From: an uncultured Myxococcota bacterium
Lineage (GTDB): Bacteria > Myxococcota_A > UBA796
Length of the DNA stretch: 64,000 nucleotides
Assembly (NCBI GenBank): GCA_965661985.1
Contig: CBFIFY010000013.1
Location: 998-64,997 of the forward strand
Direction: 5' to 3'
Shown here in pieces: positions 43,266 through 64,000 of this stretch. The notes under the pieces are model-generated. The model searched no databases and was not told the DNA's origin. It saw only the letters and a program-made list of their open reading frames with translations. The translations under genes and the position numbers were made by a program. The stretch's first letter is position 1; each line of letters begins with the position of its first letter.

Positions 43266-44261
43266 TTACTGCAAAACTTTCCAAGAAGATGTCGGAAAAG
43301 TCTCTGATTTTTTTGGCTCTGTGGCTGCTACAACATAGAGTACACGTCGATTTTGGGCTTCATCGACGCCATCCGCGGTTGGAACGGCCAGCACACTTTC
43401 ACCAAAACCTTGATAATGAATGCTGCCTTGGAAGCCATTGGATTGAAACCATTTTGCAATTGAATGCGCCCGTCGTTGGCTGAGGGTTTTGTTGTGGGAG
43501 GCATCGCCAACAGTGTCTGTGTACCCAGCCACATAGAGGTTGACTACGGCAAACTGGCTGTATTTATTGACCACTTTTTGGATTTCATCTTGGACATCGG
43601 TCAGTTTATAGACTTCTGTTGATGGTATGATGGATTGGTTGGATGCAAAGATGACATCTTCATGTGGAATGTCATAACTCCATGGATACAGTTTCATGCT
43701 GGTGGTGAAACCATATACGTCTTTGCCTTCCACTTGAATGACGGCGATGTCGTCTGACAAAGCCTCCCAAGAAACCTCAGCGAAGCCCAAGTTGAAGGCA
43801 GGGTCGACTCGTTCAAAGCCTTCTCCGACGGGACTGCCATCGGAGTCCAACAAAGAGACGCTGTAACTTTCGGCAGGTCGATCCATTTTGACTTTGAGGG
43901 TGCCCGCATCAATATTGACGGACTCTGTAGGCAGAGTCAGTGTCAAAGCAGGGTGCATGGAGACGCCAAACTTTAACGGCATAGAACCACTGGACCCGTC
44001 ATCCATCTCAATGGAGAGTGTTCCTGTACAGGTGTGCTCTCCCACTTTCGTGTCAATGGGCAGTTTGATGTCTCCACGGTCTGCGCTGCGGTGGATGGAG
44101 AATGATTTTTCGGCACAGTTGACTTGGACATCCAGCATTGTCAACGGTTGACGCACTTTTAAGATGAGAGCGGGGTTTTGAGTTTGTACTTGCCCATGTC
44201 GAATTACTTCAATGTCCACGGCATTTTCTGCCGAGGCGAGTGCTGTTAGCAGCCAAATCAT
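43266..44261 (-). CDS. OmpA/MotB-family peptidoglycan-binding protein
   Basis: C-terminal GYTDTVG...N..LS.RRA...GFGE..LAV....EAQNRRV; short signal peptide MIWLLTALASA. Confidence 0.88.
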   Translation of the reverse strand: MIWLLTALASAENAVDIEVIRHGQVQTQNPALILKVRQPLTMLDVQVNCAEKSFSIHRSADRGDIKLPIDTKVGEHTCTGTLSIEMDDGSSGSMPLKFGVSMHPALTLTLPTESVNIDAGTLKVKMDRPAESYSVSLLDSDGSPVGEGFERVDPAFNLGFAEVSWEALSDDIAVIQVEGKDVYGFTTSMKLYPWSYDIPHEDVIFASNQSIIPSTEVYKLTDVQDEIQKVVNKYSQFAVVNLYVAGYTDTVGDASHNKTLSQRRAHSIAKWFQSNGFQGSIHYQGFGESVLAVPTADGVDEAQNRRVLYVVAATEPKKSETFPTSSWKVLQ

Positions 44262-44271
44262 AGGGTCTCCC

Positions 44272-44336
44272 AAGTTTAATTTAAGTATAATTTAAGTTTA
44301 ATCTAAGGCTAATCTAGGTCTAATGTTGTCCAATCT
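44272..44336. repeat. Degenerate 11-bp tandem repeat in a divergent promoter
   Basis: AAGTTTAATTT AAGTATAATTT AAGTTTAATCT AAGGCTAATCT AGGTCTAATGT TGTCCAATCT. Confidence 0.7.
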
Positions 44337-50283: not shown

Positions 50284-53200
50284 TTATTGTAAAGAAGCCA
50301 AGAGTTCATCCAGTTGATCTTTGTACACAGGGTCTTGTACTTGTTGTAAAGAACGTTGTGCGAGGGTTTGGGCATCGGTAGATTTTCCTTCCTGTTGAAG
50401 TACATGGATTTTGGCAATCGCACTGGGAATTTGTACCTGTTCCTCATCGGGCCAGCGTTCTTGAATGGCGACCAAAGTTTGGTGGGCATTGTCGAACTGT
50501 TCAAGGGCTGTGTAGATTTGAGTGCGAAGTTCTTCAACACTCATGTCCCAACCTGGACCCAATTCGGAGGCAGTGTATCCATTGAGACTGTCCAAGGCTT
50601 CGGTCAGTTGTTCATTGGACAGTAGGGCTTTTGCCTTTTGGATGTGGGTCTGGGCATTGACCTCTTCATCGTCAGTCTGTTCGATCGAATCGAGTGCATC
50701 CACAGCGACGTCAAACTCTCCTATGGTCATGTGGACCTGTGCTTTGCCAAGGATTGCCCATTGCTTTTGTCTGGGTTCGATTCCAACAGTGGACGCTTCA
50801 TCGAACAGAGCCATCGCTTGTTCAAGGTTGTCGTCACCAAGCGCACTGTGGGCTTGACTCATCAGAGCTTCCCATTGCACGTCTGGATTGGAAGCCTGTG
50901 TTGCCCATGAATTTGCCAATTCGAGGCCTTCTGCGGAGGGGGAGGCTTGGTTGACTTCCATCAGCATCTGAATCTCAGAACCTGTGACAGCCTGTGTTGA
51001 TATACCAGACAGCACTGTCCGAGCGTCTTGCCATTGCTCTGTCATCATATAGGCGCGTGCCAGTCCAGAGCGAACCAACCTTGATTCTGTGTCTTGTTCG
51101 AGTAGGCTTTGATAGTGTGGAATGGATTGCGCTGGTTGCTCATTTTCCACCAGCATGTCGGCGAGTTCTAATGTCAGCGGTGCCGAAAATTCAGAGGGCA
51201 GTCCTGTAAGACCTTGCTCCATCGTTCGGATGGCATCGTCGAATTTTCCATCTATGCGCAATTGGGATGTTCGTTCCATCAAATATTGCACCAATACTGT
51301 TGGAGAAGCCTGGGCGAGGCTTTGCTGACGGGTTTGCCACGTATTGATTTCTTCGTCCGAGATAGAGGGGGTTTCCAAGTATAATTGAATGAGTTGCAAC
51401 TCAACGATTGGATCGATTTGAGAGAGCCCCAAGCCAACTTGACAAACGTCGCTTCGTTCCGCAGGACTGCTTAGACGCGCAAATCCCAATGCGGCTTCTG
51501 ACCGTAGTGCATCAGAGATGCGCTCGTTGTTGACAATGACTTGATATCGATCGGGAGCACGATCGTCTCCAGCCATTTCGAGGATCGTCGCACATTGCAA
51601 CTGGGCTTCAGGGGTCGACAAGTTGAGTTCGCATTCGCTGATGGCTTCATCTAGGCGATCCATTTGCGCCAGCGCCAGCGCGATCGAAGTGTGGGCTTCA
51701 GACCGTAGGGCTTCATCATCTACGCCAAATCGAAGAATGTTTTGCCACGCCAACAGTACATCCTCAATGGCATTTTGTTCTTGGGCAATCTGTGCCAACT
51801 CTTGCCAGATTTGAATCTGGATTTCCTCACTGGGTTGCGTTTGTAGAATCCGCTGATAGGCGTCTTTGGCTCGTTCCAACTCTCCAGCCAAGACAGAGGC
51901 TTGTGCTGACCCCATCAACCCTTGATATCGAATGATCCCATCGTTGGACTGCTGCAAGGATTCAAAAGCCAAACGGGCTCCTTCAATATCATTGGCTTGA
52001 AGTTTGCTGTAAGCCAATAGAACTTCAATGTGTTGAGACTCAACGGGGTCCAATCTTTCTCTGAGCAATCCTTCCCAAATTTCATTGGCTTCTTGGTGTT
52101 TTCCAAGATTGGACAGAGCCTCTGCCATACCACTTTGGGCTGCACGGCGGATGCCATCATCTTTATCAGAATCTTTTGCCTCAGAGTCTCCGGACTTTCG
52201 ACCTATGATAGAACTGTACAACTCTAGCGCTTCTTCGAACTCTCCCTGGTCAAGAATGCTTCTAGCTTCTCCCAGTTTTGCTTGAGCCAAAATTTCTGGT
52301 GGCAAATCCCCAACACTTTCAGCATCATTTTGGAGCAACAGTCGTGCAAGAGAGACCCGTGCTTCTTCCTGTGTTTCGGGTTCTACTTCGCTGATGTTCA
52401 GCACTTCTTTGTATTTGTCCGCTGCAGTGGAGATGTCGTCTTGTTCTTCAAGCAGCCTCCCTTGAATCAGTAAGGAGCGAGATCGCAGACGGCCGTCCGC
52501 TTTCGCACTTTCTGTGAGACCTTCCAGCAATGTCATAGCTTTTTCTATGTTTCCAATGCGTCTCCACAGGTCTGCCAATGCCAACGTGGCCGTTTGCGTG
52601 GTTTGGCTGTTTGGTTCTGCCTGCTGTTGCAATTGCTCATAGGCGGAGATTGCCTCATTTAGGTTGCCCAATCTGTCGTGTGCCCTTGCCTTTGACTCAA
52701 TGAGTCTTAGGGCCAATCCATCAGATATGGGAAGCTGTTCGGCCTGTTGCAATTCCGCCAGGGCTTTGTCAGACTGTCCATGTTGTAACCGTAAATCTGA
52801 CAAGGCCATATGCAAATCTGCCTGAACCTCTGGGAGTGCCTCCATGGAGGTATACAGCGATGCCAACTCTTCCTCTGCTTTGCATTGCACGATCTCACAA
52901 CTTTGTTCTGTATAAAAAATCAACTTGGCGCGTTGAAAGGTCGACAAACTTTGGTATGTCATCAGTGGCTTTAATCGCTCGAGGGCTTTGTCGGGTTGGG
53001 AGTGCGTCAAGAGAAACTGTGCAAAGCGCAGACCAACCTTGGTATTGAGTTCAGTGTTGAGATCAGCTGCCTTTAAGGCTTTGTTGAACAGCACTTCACT
53101 GCGCTGTACATCGCCATTTTGCTCTGCCAATATTGCCGACTCGATGTAGTATTGGACCTGTTCATCCAGTATTTGGCTTTGTTCAGCCAATTTTTCGTAT

Positions 53201-56200
53201 TGCTCAGAAGCCAAACCGGCATCTTGTTCCCTCATTTCTTGTGCTTGTGCTTCGAGAGACTCAAGATCTGCATTTTGTCCATCCAGAACCTGGGTCAGCA
53301 AGATAGAGCCCACACCCAAGGCAAAGAGAACCAAGGCGACTTGCAACTGTGGTGCTCCCCATGTGCCGTAGCGATCAACGGCGTCTTGCAAATCTACCAA
53401 CGCGCCTCGTTGCTCAAGATTTTGAAGTTGTTCGCTTGTTAGTCCTTGAGAGCCACGAAAGTCCGTATTGGTGACCGTTGCATTGTGAAACTTTGCGTTG
53501 TGTAAGTCACTTCGATGAAAGTTGGAGTCCCGTAAATCAGCACCTTCGAATGAGGCTGTGCGCAAAGACATTTCCACAAAAGTACACCCAACACAAACGG
53601 CTCCATCAAAGATGGCACTTTGGGCTTTTGAACCAGTACAGTCGACATTCTCCCATTTTGCTTGGCGAACATCAGCAAAACGCAAATCCGCATCGTACAA
53701 TCGTGAGAGGCGCATCTGCGTTTGTCTCAGTGATGCCTCGTACAGATTGATGCCTTGCAGATTGCTTTTGTTGAGAACGGCCTGATCCAACGTTGCGCCA
53801 TTCAAACTGGCATAATCGAGAAACGCCAACGTGAAATTACTGTTGATGAGGTTGGCCGCTTCGAGTTTGATGCCACTGAGTAAAGCCCTAGAAGCATTGC
53901 TGTCAATCCATCGAGCGGCGACATGATTGCCCCCACGCAAATCTTGTTGAAACAAGTCCATTGGTTCATTGAAAGAAGATGCCTCGGTTCGATGAATCCG
54001 ATGGCGTTCTTCTGCTTTCATGGCTAGACGTTCACGTCGACGATTGGCTTCTGTTTGCTGGCGCGCCTTTCGCTCTGCTTCATCGAGCAGCCTCGCCTCA
54101 CGTTGCTCTTCTTTGGCTCGAATCTCAGCCAATCTTTGTAGACGTGCCTGATGCTCTTGTTGGCGTTTTGCTTCAAGGGCACTCGCAGCTTGACGCTTTT
54201 GTTGCTCTCGTTCAAATGTCGCTTGGGCTTGTCTGGAGAGGTACAACTCTTCAAGGCGTTCTTTAAGTTCATCTAAATTACGCGCCAACGCGGGTGATTG
54301 AGTCGAGATTTTATCGGTAAATTGGTACCAACGCTGTTGAAGCGGACGTTGTATTTGTACGGAGAAGTCGTTTGGTTCGACGGAGATGTTTTCCTTCTCA
54401 TAGGCAACTTGTAATTCAAGCAAAGCGGCTTGAACTTCACGTTCTCTCTCCTGTAAACGTTCCAAACGCTGTTGCTTACGAGCAAAGAGTTCTCGTTGTT
54501 GGGCTTGCTCTTTAAGCAATGGATCATTGGCACGGCGCTCTTGTTCTGCGCGTACTTGTTCGAGAAAGGCTTCTTGTTTGCGTTGTCTTTCAAGGCTTTG
54601 AGATTGTTGGGTCTCAATGTCAGCCTCAATTTGCGCAGACAACTCTTGATACTCTTGACGACGAGCTTCCTCCAACAACTGATTTTTGAGACTGGAGAGT
54701 CGCTCTTTTTTACGTTCAATTTTGGCTTGTTGCTCTTTCTCAAGTGCTTCCAAACGACGCAGTTCCCGCTCTTGAGCCAACCGTTCTGCCTCTTTGGCTT
54801 TTTCTTCTTCGCGGGCTTTTCGCTTCGCCAACTTTTCCTGTCTTTTTTGCTCCTTGGCTTCTTCCGTTTGACGTTGCCTTTCCTTGCGTTCTTGAATTTT
54901 TTGTTCTTGCTCAAGTCGTTGCCGCTCTTCGGCTTCGGCTTGTTCGAGTCTCTTGCGGTCGCGTTCTTTTTGGGCTTTGGCAACTGCCTGGGCTTTGGCT
55001 TCTTCAGCTTGTTGACGAAGGGCTTCTCGATGCTCTTTCTTTCGCTGTTGAGCCTCTAATTGCTCTCGTTGTCTTGCTTCTTTTTGTCGTTGCCTTTCCT
55101 CTGCGAGTCGTTGTTGTTCAGCCTGTTCTTGTTCACGTCGTTCTTTGTCAGCCTCGGCTTCCAACAATGCTTCGATTGATTTGTTCAGCGCAAGTCTTTG
55201 TACTTGTTGGATTGCCTTGCCGGACCGTTCAAACTCAAAGGAGTCTACAAAGGTTTCTTCAGTTTCGGTGACGGTTGCTTTTTGCGTTTTCTCAAAATTT
55301 TGATAGCGCTTGTCAATAATGGCTTGGAGCTGTGCTTTGTGTGCTTGTTCAAGTTCAGCCGCTCGTTGTGCTTCAATGGCTGCTTTTTTAGCTTGTTCTT
55401 CTTCGCGCTCTTGTCTACGCTTGTCTAAGAGAGCCTGTTCTTCACGTTTTCTGTTCTCTTGTTTCTCTTGTTCGACTTGTTGCTGTGTCAGTTTGGCCTG
55501 TTCAAGACGTTTCTCTTTTTCAATTTGCTCTTGAAAGGAGACCAATGAGCGGGTGATCAATGTCGTTTGTAGGTCTTGCAACTCTTGTTTTGACAAAGAC
55601 TCGGTTGTGAGGGTGGTCGACAAAATATCTTTGATGGACTGTTCTTGAATGGCCCTCAAGTCTTGGAGGGTATTTGGAGATACCCGCAATGGTTCATCGT
55701 CATCTTGGAGATTTTGTTGGATGATCTCCATTTCTGCGTGCAATTGTTTAGAAATGGCGTGGATTGAGATTTCTGAAACTTGTTGTAACTTGGCGCTGCT
55801 AACAAGTTTGTCTTCTTGACCTTCAAAAGTTTCGTTTGTAGGTCCTTCCGCAATATCAGTTGAGATAGAAGGTTCGGTGGCAGAATCCAGTTCTGTTGGT
55901 TCTGTATCTTCTGTCCCTTCTATATCTTCAAGGACCGTATTTTCTTCAGCAGCTTGAACAGAAAACCAAGAATACACTCGGTTGAACAATGAACGATAGT
56001 CTTCAGAGTCGTCTATTTTGTCTTGGTCAGTCGCCTGTTCACTGTCTGGTAGTGTTTTATCCAATGTTGAAACAATGGGTGTTGTCGATTCTGTATCCAG
56101 TGATTGGAGCTCCAGCATCGTATTGTCGGATGTACTTTCTGAGAGAGACTGGATCTCTGTCTCAATCAACTTCCGTTCATACTCCAACTCAGCCCGCAAC

Positions 56201-57540
56201 ATGTTTTGTCTGTTCAGGGTATCAATCGTGTCTTGTTCAGCGTCCAGTGATGCTCGTCGTTCCAACAAGATTTGGTTGCTGCGTAGCAATGCCTCTTGTT
56301 GCAATTGTTCGAGCAATTGCGCTTCGGTTTGTTTCCAAGCTTGGAGTTTATCGAAGTACTCTTGTTGTGCATCCATTGCACGTTGTGCCAACTGTTGCGT
56401 TTCTTGGATTTGAGACTCAAGACGCTCTTGGATATCGGCATCCAACGGAGAGTCTTTGAGTTCATTGCGCAGCGCAGTTTCTGTTTCTAATGCCTGTTCT
56501 GTTTGCTGGTAGAGTTCTGTCGATTGACTGTTGAGTTCTTGCAAGTGCTCGGGCAGTCGATCTGCCGATTCAAGGTTTGTAAAGAACGCTTGGATGTCTT
56601 GTTGGAGCGTTTGGCGTTCCTTTTGTTGCGATTGAAGCAACTCTTGAATGCCTTGTTCCTGCTTTTTTCGTTCCAACAACCGTTCGCGTTCTGCTTTCTG
56701 CGCTTCCTTTTCTAGGCGGCGTTGTTCTTCGCGTCGCTTCCTTTCTTCAATGCCCTTTAAGCGTCGAGCTTCCTGCTCCTGTCTCCAAGCTTCTTCTTGT
56801 TTTTGCAATTCGGCTTGTTGGCGGGCCCGTTCTTCTTTCCACTCTTGAAATGTGCTGCGAACTTGTTCGGTGATCTTGGCTGTGTCAAGCCATGTACTTG
56901 GCGTGATCTTCTTTTTGAGAGTTTCAATTTTGGAACCGAGGTCTCTTCGAAAACCAATTCCCTTTTTTCTAAGTTTGTTGAGCGTGGGTGGCAGACCTTC
57001 GTACGCACCGCCAGCCAGCATTTTTTCTCGCATTTCGTCACTTAGCCCGATGGCATTTGTGATGCGGGCATTGTAACAAGAGACATCATCGAGGTTGCAA
57101 CCTGTGAAGTCAACATGTGCCAAGTCACAATTGTTGAAATTGACGTTCTTGAGTTGGGCGTTTCGAAAGGAAGAGTATCGAAGGTCTGAGCCACTCAGTG
57201 AACAGTCTGTCCAAACGGTGTCTGTAAATTGGACTTCATAAAAACTGCCATCTTCGAATGTTGCGTGTACAAAGTGATTGCCAGAAAGTGTACTTTGCTC
57301 CATTTCAATAAAGCGTCCAGTACATTGTTCAAATCGACAATGATGCCAGTTTGCTTGACGAACGATGGCAGCGTGAAACTCTGTTTCTTGAAAAGAGACG
57401 TGTTCAAAGTGGGTTTGATGAAGCTGACTTTGACTAAAGTCTCCCCGTTTGTACTCGACATTTGACCATTCCATACCGACCAAATTTTGGGCGCGATAGG
57501 ATGCATTTGCATGCGAGATGGGCTCGTTGGAGGAAGACAT
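50284..57540 (-). CDS. Giant (2418 aa) protein: pentapeptide repeats, coiled coil, pentapeptide repeats, TM, TPR solenoid
   Basis: Two 5-residue-periodic blocks (about aa 10-175 and 1195-1380); E/K/Q/R-rich helical region; one TM at about aa 1399-1418; about 1000 aa of TPR-like helices. Confidence 0.85.
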   Translation of the reverse strand: MSSSNEPISHANASYRAQNLVGMEWSNVEYKRGDFSQSQLHQTHFEHVSFQETEFHAAIVRQANWHHCRFEQCTGRFIEMEQSTLSGNHFVHATFEDGSFYEVQFTDTVWTDCSLSGSDLRYSSFRNAQLKNVNFNNCDLAHVDFTGCNLDDVSCYNARITNAIGLSDEMREKMLAGGAYEGLPPTLNKLRKKGIGFRRDLGSKIETLKKKITPSTWLDTAKITEQVRSTFQEWKEERARQQAELQKQEEAWRQEQEARRLKGIEERKRREEQRRLEKEAQKAERERLLERKKQEQGIQELLQSQQKERQTLQQDIQAFFTNLESADRLPEHLQELNSQSTELYQQTEQALETETALRNELKDSPLDADIQERLESQIQETQQLAQRAMDAQQEYFDKLQAWKQTEAQLLEQLQQEALLRSNQILLERRASLDAEQDTIDTLNRQNMLRAELEYERKLIETEIQSLSESTSDNTMLELQSLDTESTTPIVSTLDKTLPDSEQATDQDKIDDSEDYRSLFNRVYSWFSVQAAEENTVLEDIEGTEDTEPTELDSATEPSISTDIAEGPTNETFEGQEDKLVSSAKLQQVSEISIHAISKQLHAEMEIIQQNLQDDDEPLRVSPNTLQDLRAIQEQSIKDILSTTLTTESLSKQELQDLQTTLITRSLVSFQEQIEKEKRLEQAKLTQQQVEQEKQENRKREEQALLDKRRQEREEEQAKKAAIEAQRAAELEQAHKAQLQAIIDKRYQNFEKTQKATVTETEETFVDSFEFERSGKAIQQVQRLALNKSIEALLEAEADKERREQEQAEQQRLAEERQRQKEARQREQLEAQQRKKEHREALRQQAEEAKAQAVAKAQKERDRKRLEQAEAEERQRLEQEQKIQERKERQRQTEEAKEQKRQEKLAKRKAREEEKAKEAERLAQERELRRLEALEKEQQAKIERKKERLSSLKNQLLEEARRQEYQELSAQIEADIETQQSQSLERQRKQEAFLEQVRAEQERRANDPLLKEQAQQRELFARKQQRLERLQEREREVQAALLELQVAYEKENISVEPNDFSVQIQRPLQQRWYQFTDKISTQSPALARNLDELKERLEELYLSRQAQATFEREQQKRQAASALEAKRQQEHQARLQRLAEIRAKEEQREARLLDEAERKARQQTEANRRRERLAMKAEERHRIHRTEASSFNEPMDLFQQDLRGGNHVAARWIDSNASRALLSGIKLEAANLINSNFTLAFLDYASLNGATLDQAVLNKSNLQGINLYEASLRQTQMRLSRLYDADLRFADVRQAKWENVDCTGSKAQSAIFDGAVCVGCTFVEMSLRTASFEGADLRDSNFHRSDLHNAKFHNATVTNTDFRGSQGLTSEQLQNLEQRGALVDLQDAVDRYGTWGAPQLQVALVLFALGVGSILLTQVLDGQNADLESLEAQAQEMREQDAGLASEQYEKLAEQSQILDEQVQYYIESAILAEQNGDVQRSEVLFNKALKAADLNTELNTKVGLRFAQFLLTHSQPDKALERLKPLMTYQSLSTFQRAKLIFYTEQSCEIVQCKAEEELASLYTSMEALPEVQADLHMALSDLRLQHGQSDKALAELQQAEQLPISDGLALRLIESKARAHDRLGNLNEAISAYEQLQQQAEPNSQTTQTATLALADLWRRIGNIEKAMTLLEGLTESAKADGRLRSRSLLIQGRLLEEQDDISTAADKYKEVLNISEVEPETQEEARVSLARLLLQNDAESVGDLPPEILAQAKLGEARSILDQGEFEEALELYSSIIGRKSGDSEAKDSDKDDGIRRAAQSGMAEALSNLGKHQEANEIWEGLLRERLDPVESQHIEVLLAYSKLQANDIEGARLAFESLQQSNDGIIRYQGLMGSAQASVLAGELERAKDAYQRILQTQPSEEIQIQIWQELAQIAQEQNAIEDVLLAWQNILRFGVDDEALRSEAHTSIALALAQMDRLDEAISECELNLSTPEAQLQCATILEMAGDDRAPDRYQVIVNNERISDALRSEAALGFARLSSPAERSDVCQVGLGLSQIDPIVELQLIQLYLETPSISDEEINTWQTRQQSLAQASPTVLVQYLMERTSQLRIDGKFDDAIRTMEQGLTGLPSEFSAPLTLELADMLVENEQPAQSIPHYQSLLEQDTESRLVRSGLARAYMMTEQWQDARTVLSGISTQAVTGSEIQMLMEVNQASPSAEGLELANSWATQASNPDVQWEALMSQAHSALGDDNLEQAMALFDEASTVGIEPRQKQWAILGKAQVHMTIGEFDVAVDALDSIEQTDDEEVNAQTHIQKAKALLSNEQLTEALDSLNGYTASELGPGWDMSVEELRTQIYTALEQFDNAHQTLVAIQERWPDEEQVQIPSAIAKIHVLQQEGKSTDAQTLAQRSLQQVQDPVYKDQLDELLASLQ

Positions 57541-59409: not shown

Positions 59410-60867
59410 TTAACGGGTCAGTGTGAGTGTTTGGTTTACACTTGGTAATGGAGTTGAATAGAGCTCGTCCCACTTGAGCCAAGGTTCATTTGGAAAGCGG
59501 ATTTCCATGTCCTGTATCTCTTTGGCTCGACCAAAACCAACGTGCCAATGGGGCGAACGGTTGGCACCATAACTGGATTGTCCATGTATGAGACCTGTCC
59601 AAGTAACGCCACTGGCAGTGATTCGCACCATCGTCCCATTGGGACCTTCGATGTTTAACCAGTTGTTTCGGGTGCAACTGTCGGAAATCCAGAGTTCTGG
59701 AGGCTTTTCCACATCGGTGATCCAATAGTCCAAAACTCCATCGTCGTTCCAGTGTAAAGGGATGATACTGCGAAAAGATCCACTGAGGGTCAACCCCCAA
59801 TCCTCAGACTTTTCAATAAAGCCATCTGGACTTTGCATGAGTGCCGAAATTCCAAGGTCACCCCTGTATTCCGGTTCTACCAAGCCTTCATAGGTGTGAT
59901 CTCCCATCGCTGTAAAAATATCCACCGCGCCATCATTGTTCATATCCACCAATCGAACGCCCCAACTCATTTCCTTGGGCTCCATTTGAGCAACGCCCCA
60001 TGAATAAGACACATCAACAAAGGTGTTGGTGCTGTCGTTGATCAAAAGATGGTTTTGTGTCAGGTCCCCAGACAAAACATCCAGCCAACCGTCTCGATTG
60101 ACATCCGCAACATCGATTCCCATCGCGTCTTGAATGGGTAGGCAATGGCAACTGTGGTCTGGTCTGAAATTGGCATCTTCATTCCACCACAAAACGTTGC
60201 CACCAAACGCAGCCCCTCGGTCGTTGGCATCCATGATGTCGACCTGTCCATCCATGTCAAAGTCGGCCACAACGGCATCAAATGTTTTTCGAGAAGCGTG
60301 GTCTGATTGAAGACTTTTATCTATGGCGAAATTATTGTGTCCCCAAAGAATGACATTTTGATCGGATTGGGTTGCCAAGAAAGACAGAACGCCCACATAG
60401 ATGTCGTCTATGTTATCTCCATTTAGGTCGCCAACGCGCAATATGTGCGCTTGATCCCATCCAAAATTTGTACTGTGAGACTTGGATAAGGTTCCGTTGT
60501 CGTTTTCAAACCACCACAGTTCCGTTCCATTTCTCATTCCGTTGGGTTGGACCTCCATGACCAGATCGTCCCAACCATCCTGATTCCAATCTAAAATCGC
60601 CATTGCCCCACAGTGGTCGCTGATTTCTGTGTAATGAGCGCGTTCGTATTGAATCAAAGACTCAAATGGAAAGCACTGAAGTACATCGATGGTACCGTCC
60701 TTGTTGACGTCAAAAGCAACCACTTGTGGACCCTCATTGTGGTAGGGAGACTCACTTTGTCTGCCAATTGTGACGAAGTCGGATTTGGAAAACGAGAGGG
60801 TCGTATTTTCACAGGTTTGGGTGGGAGACGGTGTCTGACATCCCAAAATGGTCAGGAAAAAAATCAT
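59410..60867 (-). CDS. FG-GAP/VCBS repeat lipoprotein, CRTAC1-like (paralog of 11088-12635)
   Basis: Lipobox ILGC; DxNxDGxxD repeats; C-terminal SDSCTRNNWL.IEGP...HVGFG. Confidence 0.8.
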   Translation of the reverse strand: MIFFLTILGCQTPSPTQTCENTTLSFSKSDFVTIGRQSESPYHNEGPQVVAFDVNKDGTIDVLQCFPFESLIQYERAHYTEISDHCGAMAILDWNQDGWDDLVMEVQPNGMRNGTELWWFENDNGTLSKSHSTNFGWDQAHILRVGDLNGDNIDDIYVGVLSFLATQSDQNVILWGHNNFAIDKSLQSDHASRKTFDAVVADFDMDGQVDIMDANDRGAAFGGNVLWWNEDANFRPDHSCHCLPIQDAMGIDVADVNRDGWLDVLSGDLTQNHLLINDSTNTFVDVSYSWGVAQMEPKEMSWGVRLVDMNNDGAVDIFTAMGDHTYEGLVEPEYRGDLGISALMQSPDGFIEKSEDWGLTLSGSFRSIIPLHWNDDGVLDYWITDVEKPPELWISDSCTRNNWLNIEGPNGTMVRITASGVTWTGLIHGQSSYGANRSPHWHVGFGRAKEIQDMEIRFPNEPWLKWDELYSTPLPSVNQTLTLTR

Positions 60868-60976
60868 CAACAAATTGTCAGAAAAAGGGTTTCAGGTGTT
60901 GGTTGACGTGAGATAATTGGTGCGATCAATTATAAGATACTATACAATCTATTCATCTTATCGATTTGAGGTAATC

Positions 60977-62038
60977 ATGATGCACAAAATAATTCAATCT
61001 TCCTTGTTGGGAACAGCCGTTTTGGGTCTCGTTGCCTGTGGTGAACAAGAGAAAGCCAGTACAGAAACCGAAGCGGTACAGTGCGATTTGTCGTTGGATG
61101 AGTTGACCGATTCTGAATGGTTGTTTTTGAAAGAAATCAATGGACAGGATCCCGAGCCAGATCCAAAAAGTCGTTTGAAGTTCGTCAGTCAAGATGGCAA
61201 AATGGTCGCCAAATATACAGCGGGCTCCTTGTCTGATATGTATGATTACGAGTGTGGCTCAGAGTTGAAAGACGGTCAGTTGGTGTGTCGTACAAAACCC
61301 GACATTGTGCAGTGGTGCCAAACCTTGATGAGCAGCAACCGTAAGTGCAATTTGAAAACATTGCAATACATCGATGACACGTTGACAGACTCTGAAGAGG
61401 TCCAAAAAGGCATCGAAGAAGCAGCCAAACTGTTCCAAGAAGCCAAATCTGGAGACAGTTTCACCCGCTACAAGCGTCAGTTCAATACCTTGACCAACAA
61501 ACTTCAAGGCATCATCTACGTCAATGTAGACACCAACAATTGTCGATTGAACGTCATCGATCACTATGTGGCCTACGTGGAGAAGAAGCGCCAAGAGGAT
61601 TCGAATCCAAATGGAAACAACGGCTTTGTCAAAAACGAACTGGGAACATTGCAGTGGGAAGACTGTGAAACACCACAAATCTTCGACACGATCACCGCCA
61701 CTTTCCCTGAGAAACCGGAAGAAGTTCAGCCAATCGGACGTCATGCCGTTGGAACAGAAGTCCATTACTGGGTATTGCACGAGCCACTGCGCTATGCTGA
61801 AGAAGGGTGCACCTACACCTACGACGTATTCCACAATTACAAGCGTGTTGAGTCTGGTCTCACACCAGAAGTGGTGGATGTAAAAGGCAAGAAGGAAAAC
61901 CGTTACCACTATGCCAAGAAGTATGACACGGCCAGCAAGCGTGGAACGGCTGAAGTTGTGATGACAACACACAATATTCAGTGTAAAGATAAGCCAGTCA
62001 AGAAAATTACCACCTGCAACAAGGTTTTAATTCGCTGA
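60977..62038 (+). CDS. Hypothetical Cys-containing lipoprotein
   Basis: GAGG SD; lipobox LVAC; long ORF followed by a terminator. Confidence 0.75.
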   Translation: MMHKIIQSSLLGTAVLGLVACGEQEKASTETEAVQCDLSLDELTDSEWLFLKEINGQDPEPDPKSRLKFVSQDGKMVAKYTAGSLSDMYDYECGSELKDGQLVCRTKPDIVQWCQTLMSSNRKCNLKTLQYIDDTLTDSEEVQKGIEEAAKLFQEAKSGDSFTRYKRQFNTLTNKLQGIIYVNVDTNNCRLNVIDHYVAYVEKKRQEDSNPNGNNGFVKNELGTLQWEDCETPQIFDTITATFPEKPEEVQPIGRHAVGTEVHYWVLHEPLRYAEEGCTYTYDVFHNYKRVESGLTPEVVDVKGKKENRYHYAKKYDTASKRGTAEVVMTTHNIQCKDKPVKKITTCNKVLIR

Positions 62039-62245: not shown

Positions 62246-63349
62246 TCAGTCCGTCGTGTCGGTCTTTTTTTCGATGGGTGTCCATAGCTCGACACTGGAT
62301 GGATAATTGTCGTTGTCAGCCATCAAGAGGGCAACACCAATATCGGTGAGGGCAATGTTTTGTTGAATGAGTTGACCGTCAATTCCACGTAGGAAAAATG
62401 AACAGAAATACTTTTGGTTGGGGTACCATTCAAAACGCTCTCCAAAGAAATGTTTGATGCGATATCTCCGTTTGTTTTCCACATTGTAAATGTTGATTTC
62501 AGGGGGGATGATTTCTTTGGGTACCCAATCTGGAAGGCTGTCTATCTTTTGCTGTCGGCGCTTCTCCTCGCGTTTTCGGACTTCTGGATTTTTGTATTTC
62601 CCATCGCCGAGATCGACCGGCGGAAGGGGGGCTCCATCGGTTTCCAATGCGACGTACTTGCCTTCAGGATGGGGGATGCCTCGCTTGGCGTCAGGGAAGT
62701 CGGCAATCTTTGTGCCATCGAGAGACACCAGATGATTTCCATTCTCATCGGTGTAGGACAGCAAGTTTGCTTTGGGGGCAACATCAATGTTGGTGACCTG
62801 ATCCAAAAAGTCAAAAGCCCGAGAGAAACCATCTGCTTCTGAGAAGAAATAGGGTCGTCGCTTTCCGGAATCGTCGATGAAAGTCAACAGCATCGTTTTG
62901 TTTTCGTAGACCTGTAAGTCAGCAGGTTTGGTTCCAGGAATCTCGTGGTTTTGAATCATCCCCGCAGTCAAATACACGCTGAGTTGAGGGGGGCCGTCGT
63001 CTGTTTCGATGGTCGGGACCACAATGGCCGCATCGTGCATCCACACCCCACGCGCGATGGGTTTGCCGATGGGCAACTGGTCGACCCCTTGATTTTCGGG
63101 GTTTAAAATGAAATTGTTGGTGAACAGTTGAAAGTAGAACAAGCGTCCATCGGGAGACCAATTGTAATGGTAGATGTTGTTTGACCCACAGTCGGTAAAC
63201 AAGGTTTGAATATTGGCTTTGCGCTTTAAAAAACCAATCTTGCCTTCTTCACAATCTTCATAGACTTCTCGAATGTTGTTGTACAATGACCGTTCGGCAT
63301 AAAAGTCTTCTCTTGAACATCCCAGCAGTGTGGCCAATAACCAAAGCAT
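62246..63349 (-). CDS. Hypothetical lipoprotein, propeller-like
   Basis: AAGGAG SD; MLWLLATLLGC; YNWSPDG and HPEGKYVAL PD40-like motifs. Confidence 0.7.
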   Translation of the reverse strand: MLWLLATLLGCSREDFYAERSLYNNIREVYEDCEEGKIGFLKRKANIQTLFTDCGSNNIYHYNWSPDGRLFYFQLFTNNFILNPENQGVDQLPIGKPIARGVWMHDAAIVVPTIETDDGPPQLSVYLTAGMIQNHEIPGTKPADLQVYENKTMLLTFIDDSGKRRPYFFSEADGFSRAFDFLDQVTNIDVAPKANLLSYTDENGNHLVSLDGTKIADFPDAKRGIPHPEGKYVALETDGAPLPPVDLGDGKYKNPEVRKREEKRRQQKIDSLPDWVPKEIIPPEINIYNVENKRRYRIKHFFGERFEWYPNQKYFCSFFLRGIDGQLIQQNIALTDIGVALLMADNDNYPSSVELWTPIEKKTDTTD

Positions 63350-63454: not shown

Positions 63455-64000
63455 TTAGTCTGTTGCTTTGTTGTTCTGAGACTTGTACTGTTCAAATTGC
63501 GTCCACACTTCATTCTTTTGTGCTTTGAATGCAGTGTACTCTTTCCCAGACAATTTCTTTCCTTTGGGGAACTTCACTTTCATGGCGTCCACAAAGCGTT
63601 TGTTTTTCCAAACCTGATAGTGAAGGTGTGGTCCCGTTGAGGCACCAGTTGAACCGACTTTTCCGATGATTTGTCCTTTTTTGATTCGCTGTCCCTTCTT
63701 GACAGAGATGGCAGAGAGGTGAGAGTAGGATGTCTCATAGGGACTCATGTGCTTGATTTTGACGAACTTACCATGACCGCCATTCCGTCCAGCGTAGGTA
63801 ACGACACCATCAGAGACCGATCGAACGGGGGTACCCGTTTTGGCTCCAAAGTCCGTTCCGTTGTGTGGGCGGGTTGTTTTGTGAATGGGGTGGAATCGTT
63901 TTGGATTGAAATTGGAGGTTACACGCGAGAAGGAGAGTGGCGAACGTAGAAAAGGACTTTCTCTTGAGACACCGTCCTTGTCGTAATAGGCTGTGATGTC
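63455..64000 (-). CDS. M23 family metallopeptidase (MepM-like), 5'-truncated by window edge
   Basis: Reading frame open from the edge: FLRSPL...RFHPI...HNGTDFG..TGTPV; YSHLS; VGSTGASTGPHLHY. Confidence 0.92.
   Translation of the reverse strand, partial: DITAYYDKDGVSRESPFLRSPLSFSRVTSNFNPKRFHPIHKTTRPHNGTDFGAKTGTPVRSVSDGVVTYAGRNGGHGKFVKIKHMSPYETSYSHLSAISVKKGQRIKKGQIIGKVGSTGASTGPHLHYQVWKNKRFVDAMKVKFPKGKKLSGKEYTAFKAQKNEVWTQFEQYKSQNNKATD

Follow-up and report, generated by a model that had tools for sequence, protein, structure and literature searches.

The periplasmic part of the Caulobacter polar organiser PodJ combines tetratricopeptide repeats (TPR) with peptidoglycan binding. Stand-alone pentapeptide-repeat proteins (MfpA, Qnr, the AlbG type, Np275/276 and HetL) are soluble, about 200 residues long, and share a right-handed quadrilateral beta-helix followed by a C-terminal helix; pentapeptide repeats are also found in an envelope-spanning assembly, in DotG/IcmE of the Legionella type IVB secretion system. 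Long uninterrupted TPR-like superhelices serve as assembly platforms in IFT-A (8fgw_D), Ski3 (4buj), Ctr9, TTC7B and a periplasmic scaffold chain of the Campylobacter jejuni flagellar motor (9hmf_K). PodJ itself, according to PMC10127582, has a helix-rich, partly disordered N-terminal region in the cytoplasm, one transmembrane (TM) segment and a periplasmic C-terminal domain. Here we consider gene P0001 of an uncultured Myxococcota bacterium (minus strand, positions 50284-57540 of a 64,000-nucleotide stretch of contig CBFIFY010000013.1, the whole of which is called the window), which joins two pentapeptide beta-helices, a long charged spacer, one TM segment and a TPR-like solenoid in a single protein, and which we read, with moderate confidence, as an envelope scaffold of one bacterial lineage.

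With PodJ, P0001 has in common the predicted bitopic order of a cytoplasmic helical and disordered part, one TM segment and a periplasmic C-terminus; it differs by its two beta-helices, by helices that are of the ER/K type (single-alpha-helix-like) and not mainly coiled-coil, and by a periplasmic part of about 1000 residues. A preliminary description of this DNA, made from its letters and translations, had already pointed to PodJ: the bitopic layout is indeed the same, and the likeness is one of layout only, with no sequence link seen in Pfam, NCBIfam or the Protein Data Bank (PDB). No PodJ-named family is among the Pfam and NCBIfam matches, the presence of a PodJ model in these libraries being unchecked and the PodJ sequence itself not compared. 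Unlike the stand-alone pentapeptide proteins, P0001 has two such modules within a membrane protein of 2418 residues; its best PDB sequence matches are designed beta-solenoids (4yfo, E 5e-17) and, among natural proteins, Np275-Np276 (2j8k, E 5e-12). The match to DotG/IcmE is weak (7muc_AG, E 5.9e-4; NCBIfam 18.8 vs 750 bits) and a likeness of repeats only, and the window has no secretion-system context. Foldseek comparison of the predicted solenoid with the PDB returns long TPR scaffolds at E 3e-20 to 3e-10 (IFT-A 8fgw_D at 3e-20; 9hmf_K at rank 25, E 2.7e-11), none of which has pentapeptide domains; identities are 11-15% and, because the TM-scores (template modelling scores) are only 0.14-0.24, the likeness is one of repeat class and not of family.

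No named family covers P0001 as a whole: the Pfam and NCBIfam matches are at repeat level, PDB sequence searches give generic repeat-level matches only, and members of its family are labelled in databases just "pentapeptide repeat-containing protein". When aa 1186-2418 were looked up in the ESM Atlas, the only clusters returned were small cyanobacterial ones of the pentapeptide(+TPR) type, at 0.86-0.87, under the counting level. In the full-text literature searched, no paper on a pentapeptide-spacer-pentapeptide-TM-TPR architecture was found; PMC12475490, consulted for pentapeptide proteins of myxobacteria and cyanobacteria, deals with an unrelated 30-kDa protein. The statement in the preliminary description that the architecture was not recognisable from any named protein is thus borne out.

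Anatomy and conserved core

P0001 is a single uninterrupted frame of 2418 codons (about 7.2 kb) whose parts follow one another as beta-helix 1 with its cap, a charged spacer of about 1000 residues, beta-helix 2 with its cap, a TM segment and a TPR-like solenoid. These parts were delimited by Pfam, by Kyte-Doolittle hydropathy and by AlphaFold2 (AF2) models, the confidence of which is given as the predicted local distance difference test score (pLDDT):

50284..57540, minus strand: whole gene P0001, 2418 residues plus stop; start aligned with ortholog starts; no long internal DNA repeats
57046..57501, minus strand: pentapeptide beta-helix 1, aa 14-165 (Pfam; AF2, pLDDT 84-97)
57001..57048, minus strand: cap 1, GLSDEMREKMLAGGA, aa 165-179 (AF2 helix 168-176), then a conserved AYEGLPP motif
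56872..57000, minus strand: basic linker, predicted disordered, aa 181-223; net +5/+6 over aa 182-199 (AF2)
56110..56883, minus strand: helical spacer part A, aa 220-477; aa 251-300 ER/K-like, aa 330-410 at pLDDT 82-87
55801..56109, minus strand: acidic low-confidence insert, aa 478-580; least conserved part, 26-31% identity to close relatives
53977..55800, minus strand: helical spacer part B, aa 581-1188; aa 801-950 and 1101-1200 ER/K-like, conserved WYQFTD at aa 1071-1076
53446..53958, minus strand: pentapeptide beta-helix 2, membrane-adjacent, aa 1195-1365 (Pfam; AF2, pLDDT 84-98)
53365..53445, minus strand: cap 2, GLTSEQLQNLEQRGA, aa 1366-1380, and a second short helix to aa 1392 (AF2)
53284..53352, minus strand: single TM helix, aa 1397-1419 (hydropathy), conserved in orthologs
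50287..53274, minus strand: TPR-like solenoid with about 28 helical hairpins and net charge -93, aa 1423-2418; best-conserved region
51592..51633, minus strand: Cys1970 and Cys1983, candidate disulfide across one hairpin; both or neither in 47 aligned rows

The pentapeptide assignment is clear, Pfam Pentapeptide (PF00805) scoring 119.8 bits against a cut-off of 20.2, with matches in both blocks, and Pentapeptide_4 (PF13599) 102.6 bits against 38. The two blocks, caps included, align with each other (E 3e-10 to 4e-9). In cap 2, G-L and G-A do not vary among 23 orthologs, and AF2 predicts two helices there, aa 1369-1377 and 1384-1392. Membership of the solenoid in the TPR class is equally clear (TPR_19 63.7 bits, cut-off 25; TPR_16 53.4, cut-off 32.7; TPR_2 43.3, cut-off 27). 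The AF2 model of aa 1219-2418 (47-row alignment, mean pLDDT 88) has about 56 helices of 12-18 residues at pLDDT 85-95 from aa 1423 to the C-terminus, interrupted once by a disordered loop (aa 1782-1793). Net charge of the solenoid ranges from -31 to -127 in the family. This anatomy agrees with what the preliminary description had read from the translation, namely pentapeptide blocks at about aa 10-175 and 1195-1380 that end in homologous caps, an acidic low-complexity insert between them, a single TM segment at 53285-53345, TPR-like repeats up to the C-terminus and no signal peptide. It had also named three findings that would speak against it: a full-length match to a characterised family, of which none was found in Pfam, NCBIfam or the PDB; the lack of a TM segment, of which one is present at aa 1397-1419; and misassembly of the frame, which the full-length orthologs of independent assemblies contradict.

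Among these orthologs, one in another genome of the same genus (G003) is an open reading frame of 2417 residues, 62% identical to P0001 over residues 1-2418; the full layout also recurs in eight metagenomic proteins, 2404-3196 residues long. P0001 is a real gene. Orthologs have overall 20-89% identity over the core, and 20-37% beyond the genus. One further same-genus ortholog (L034:5959-13198, on the same contig as L005) is frameshifted near aa 850 in the ER/K region, with 69% identity to P0001 in its N-terminal half and 88% in its C-terminal half; this locus contains 10 N, and the frameshift may reflect either faulty assembly or true disruption of the gene.

A family profile built from 23 orthologs (1113 positions), which starts where beta-helix 2 ends and reaches the C-terminus, was searched against 1.84 billion representative proteins. 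Thousands of generic TPR matches were obtained (2864 at E<=1e-30), and we retained a set of 157 proteins (P0001 and P0003-P0158) comprising 11 from an earlier search for relatives and the best 150 profile matches. Fifty-two of the 157 span at least 900 of the 1113 positions; at least two pentapeptide blocks are present in 39 of them, one in 11 and none in 2, with four to six in four proteins, some of the 52 being gene-call fragments. Among 301 sampled genomes of the phylum, with E<=1e-80 counted as a match, the gene was found in 24, 22 from the order of the window and 2 others from the same class, and was not found in the other 277. Within the order it is found in f2 (9/10), f6 (6/6), f7 (4/5) and f3 (1/3), and in 0/18 genomes of f4. 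Each genome has one match in 23/24 cases; in the remaining one, G210, two partial matches lie on separate contigs and cover different parts of the profile. In the genomes sampled, the family is single-copy, order-restricted and vertically inherited.

Compared with a close relative, identity is highest in the TPR domain (71%), lower in the beta-helices (53-59%) and lowest in the acidic insert (31%), and the spacer ranges from 53 to 1782 residues in the family, for which reason we give the core more weight than the tether. Judged from these alignments, the conserved core is beta-helix 2, its cap, the TM segment and the TPR solenoid.

Topology, neighbouring genes and proposed role

The N-terminus of P0001 is hydrophilic, without any hydrophobic stretch, and the only 19-residue Kyte-Doolittle window above 1.5 is that at aa 1395-1421. 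Within 20 residues of the TM segment, the N-side carries 58 lysines and arginines, the C-side 25 (23 orthologs summed). Since there is a single TM segment and no signal peptide, an N-in/C-out orientation, in agreement with the positive-inside flanks, is most likely, with the N-terminal 1396 residues in the cytoplasm and the solenoid in the periplasm. The same placement of beta-helices and exported TPR repeats had been proposed before; for the solenoid it is supported by the lysine and arginine bias, by retention of a cysteine pair, by the lipoprotein genes downstream and by the missing signal peptide.

The cysteines, Cys1970 and Cys1983, sit on adjacent helices of one hairpin. Both are present in 31/47 aligned rows, neither in 16/47 and one alone in 0/47, a pattern that corresponds to a single change on a FastTree phylogeny of the ectodomain; the pair is kept in 31/31 rows of a deep clade, in a domain whose mean column identity is 27-39%. 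Such retention fits a disulfide, and hence an oxidising compartment.

Two kinds of lipoprotein gene recur downstream of the giant gene. In the window this is P0002:

48013..50262, minus strand: P0002, 749 residues, 21 nucleotides past the P0001 stop; lipobox N-terminus, sulfatase-fold (alkaline-phosphatase superfamily) domain and TPR repeats

P0002 matches Pfam Sulfatase at 136 bits, and its relatives also have lipobox N-termini. Where solved sulfatases align with S/C-x-P-x-R, which we take to be the formylglycine-sulfatase motif, P0002 reads T-T-P-S-H, and its N-terminal metal-site region, DTTR, is kept in relatives. A canonical formylglycine sulfatase is for this reason improbable, and P0002 may be a phospho- or sulfo-esterase with a threonine nucleophile. 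The signal peptide ahead of the lipobox cysteine is just 7 residues long. Synteny of the sulfatase-TPR gene with the giant gene had been put forward as worth examining: it holds in 4 genomes of the genus (the window counted) and in G006, G031, G020 and G011 from other genera, the G011 homolog being weak and at the edge of the locus, and it fails in genus g2 and in G005. The second kind is a gene of about 330 residues with a lipobox and W..VG..G repeats, propeller-like and without Pfam family, which comes after the giant gene, on its strand, in 9/23 loci:

L014:5497-6450, propeller-like lipoprotein gene
L015:256-1317, propeller-like lipoprotein gene
L016:2217-3242, propeller-like lipoprotein gene
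L017:10801-11895, propeller-like lipoprotein gene
L018:1378-2556, propeller-like lipoprotein gene
L019:1460-2551, propeller-like lipoprotein gene
L025:6460-7503, propeller-like lipoprotein gene
L026:8991-9896, propeller-like lipoprotein gene
L029:1613-2692, propeller-like lipoprotein gene

These recurring downstream lipoproteins are the sole functional hint and suggest that the direction in which to look is the periplasmic side.

We infer, on balance, that P0001 is a lineage-specific bitopic inner-membrane envelope scaffold. Its N-terminal 1396 residues would lie in the cytoplasm, a single TM helix would cross the inner membrane, and an acidic TPR superhelix of about 1000 residues would extend into the periplasm and dock exported partners there, the first candidates being the lipoproteins encoded just downstream (the sulfatase-fold/TPR lipoprotein here, the propeller-like lipoprotein in most relatives). 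On the cytoplasmic side the two rigid beta-helices (2 to 6 in relatives) would act as protein-docking modules, joined by a lineage-variable tether that in the genus of the window would have grown to about 1000 residues as a segmented chain of helices, in part of the ER/K type, with a disordered acidic insert.

Several observations weigh against this reading. Both TPR and pentapeptide repeats are promiscuous, so that "scaffold" is close to a default, and the Foldseek TM-scores of the solenoid are low. The topology is drawn from hydropathy and indirect signs; the cysteine pattern is one of retention and not of repeated covariation, 16/47 rows having neither residue; and an extra hydrophobic segment in the genus g2 orthologs, which may be a hairpin, an amphipathic anchor or a true span, would, if a single span, invert the topology of everything after it. 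The linkage to neighbours is patchy: a P0002 homolog is missing downstream in genus g2 and G005, and a profile search for the propeller-like gene in the genome of the window (93.8% complete) gave only partial matches of 28 and 22 bits.

A more specific form of the scaffold, which we find rather unlikely as it stands, is an undescribed trans-envelope coupler of one Myxococcota order, in which a disulfide-stapled, highly acidic, periplasm-spanning solenoid would hold outer-envelope lipoproteins (the propeller-like one and the non-canonical sulfatase-fold enzyme) and be linked mechanically through the TM helix to the beta-helix docking sites, the distal one carried, in the genus of the window, on the ER/K tether. 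If true, the long ER/K tether would be a rare bacterial use of a single alpha-helix (SAH), and contact with deep cytoplasmic structures would be possible.

Should the scaffold reading be right, P0001 would be a conserved single-copy envelope organiser of one largely uncultured Myxococcota order, assembled from well-known repeat modules in an order for which the literature searched has no description. Across the family, tethers between about 50 and about 1800 residues long are attached to one and the same membrane core; this graded natural set would help in studying the effect of spacer length in a bacterial scaffold. The ER/K stretches are also a candidate bacterial example of long single alpha-helices. 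Practical weight is modest, the organism being uncultured.

The charged spacer and alternative readings

The spacer had been described as about 1000 residues of charged helix. Its charge, its length and its mostly helical nature are confirmed; it is not one helix. In the AF2 model of aa 1-1200, for which a 10-row alignment, a mean pLDDT of 63 and a predicted template modelling score of 0.30 make the helix breaks soft evidence, it is broken into 12 helices (220-326, 331-363, 368-477, 512-527, 581-612, 622-645, 651-749, 772-873, 899-1004, 1007-1049, 1066-1079 and 1083-1188), six of them of about 100-110 residues, at pLDDT 55-70; stretches below 50 are found at 187-223, 471-590, 751-776 and 1052-1065. 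A composition scan, which places the acidic insert at about aa 478-650, shows that the ER/K-like stretches aa 251-300, 801-950 and 1101-1200 are 52-60% charged and 6-14% hydrophobic, with low heptad contrast and dense i/i+3-4 pairs of opposite charge, and that more amphipathic helices with higher heptad scores are found at aa 300-500 and 1001-1100. ER/K-rich sequence is the composition described for SAHs in PMC5347031 and PMC12203971. The three stretches thus resemble, by composition only, the eukaryotic SAH spacers (myosins, CAF-1 KER, drebrin); they differ in being interleaved with amphipathic helices and disorder. The basic linker ahead of the spacer is unremarkable as an amphipathic helix (hydrophobic moment 0.38, about the 90th percentile of P0001).

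Among the 39 relatives with at least two pentapeptide blocks, the distance from first to last block varies from 53 to 1782 residues (median 520), and is 996-1139 residues in the 8 nearest. Distant long forms have spacers that are P/E-rich, A/E/R-rich or filled with beta-helix, and in P0022, P0024, P0037 and P0045 the helical spacer is replaced by 4-6 tandem beta-helices. Because of this range of length and chemistry, neither is conserved.

The plasticity of the spacer bears on the possibility that P0001 is a polarity hub or landmark like Caulobacter PodJ, in which the cytoplasmic helical region would self-assemble at a pole and recruit clients, held to the envelope by the TPR repeats in the periplasm. 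The overall layout (as given in PMC10127582), the disordered acidic insert and the amphipathic helices at aa 300-500 and 1001-1100 are in keeping with such a role. Large parts of the spacer are nevertheless ER/K-like, with so few hydrophobic residues that self-assembly as a coiled coil is disfavoured, and Pfam, NCBIfam and PDB comparisons give no sign of a sequence relation. Moreover, as many orthologs have hardly any spacer (53-140 residues), a function borne by it would not be the conserved function of the family, and we regard a polar hub as fairly improbable.

An inverse or different topology, in which the hydrophobic helix would be something other than a plain N-in/C-out anchor and the solenoid would stay cytoplasmic, appears unlikely to a somewhat greater degree. 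It draws on the short forms of genus g2 (L013, L014, L015, L025 and L026, open frames of 1591-1667 residues), in which beta-helix 1 is followed by one or two hydrophobic segments (Kyte-Doolittle up to 2.1), about 120 residues, beta-helix 2, the TM segment and the TPR solenoid, as well as on an arginine near the C-terminal end of several TM segments and on the low AF2 confidence at the TM helix (38-52). In P0001 itself, however, one segment only passes the hydropathy threshold, and the flanking charge bias, the retained cysteine pair of the solenoid and the lipoprotein nature of the operon partners all point the other way.

The preliminary description had also suggested a ruler, a continuous helix on the order of 100 nm that would place one beta-helix at the membrane and the other deep in the cytoplasm. 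In its strict form this is a fixed-length tether of about 100-150 nm setting the distance of beta-helix 1 from the membrane, and the roughly 1000 residues predicted mainly helical, the resemblance of the ER/K-rich stretches to stable single alpha-helices (PMC5347031) and the similar spacer lengths of the 8 nearest relatives are what one would expect of it. The predicted spacer is, on the contrary, segmented, with an acidic insert of about 100 residues and three other low-confidence stretches; the short forms have a hydrophobic, probably membrane-associated segment directly after beta-helix 1; and the spacer is evolutionarily plastic in both length and chemistry, which argues against a ruler of fixed length. 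Such a ruler is very unlikely, and the spacer is suggested to give reach and spacing with no fixed length. A complex prediction for aa 1-190 with aa 1184-1394, made as a fold-back test of the two beta-helix regions, scored 0.10 against a mark of 0.32 and counts neither way.

The beta-helices had further been compared to DNA mimics, and a membrane-anchored mimic acting on topoisomerase in the manner of MfpA/Qnr, or tethering the nucleoid to the membrane, would share with these proteins the pentapeptide fold (PDB sequence matches 6zt4, 3e-8; 2bm4, 7e-6; 3pss, 5e-4) and could be connected with the presence of dnaG two genes upstream in 9/23 loci of relatives (Pfam-tested in one, L018). Qnr and MfpA mimic DNA through a strongly acidic, DNA-like surface. 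In P0001 the net charge is only -9 for beta-helix 1 and -2 for beta-helix 2 (-13 to +1 in relatives), all NCBIfam pentapeptide equivalogs score far below their cut-offs (HetL 92 vs 260, Qnr 56.1 vs 240, MfpA 47.3 vs 360 bits), and the best-conserved part is the TPR domain, across the membrane from the beta-helices; DNA mimicry is accordingly not supported and we hold it to be highly improbable. Finally, that the frame is an assembly chimera or not a gene, for which the frameshift near aa 850 in the ER/K region of the same-genus relative with 88% identity could be cited, is excluded for practical purposes because independent assemblies hold full-length orthologs (the 2417-residue frame in G003, the eight metagenomic proteins), the P0001 frame having also been searched for long internal repeats with none found.

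Other features of the locus

Upstream of the giant gene, 12/23 loci have a divergent EPSP-synthase-family gene, of which three were tested with Pfam and two are murA above the TIGR01072 cut-off; dnaG lies beyond murA in 9/23. This murA/dnaG synteny (for example L018:8119-11516) is found across several families of the order and is broken in the genus of the window, where P0001 is preceded by an RNase T-like exonuclease and a Ham1-family nucleoside triphosphatase. A functional link to murA and dnaG was considered and dropped, murA being on a separate contig (C62) in the genome of the window.

Scans for promoters and terminators gave no more sites than shuffled sequence, and PADLOC anti-phage models matched P0001 and P0002 in 0 families. 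In 3 loci a further same-strand gene stands just downstream of the giant gene; in L017, the sole locus tested, it precedes the propeller-like gene and is FHA-GGDEF by Pfam.

The window also contains other envelope-related genes nearby, an OmpA-domain protein (43266-44273, minus strand), an FG-GAP/ASPIC repeat protein (59410-60873, minus strand) and an M23 peptidase (63455-64000, minus strand) that is cut by the window end. Two other frames without Pfam or NCBIfam family, at 60917-62038 (plus strand, 373 residues) and 62246-63349 (minus strand, 367 residues), are 74-97% identical in relatives of the same genus.

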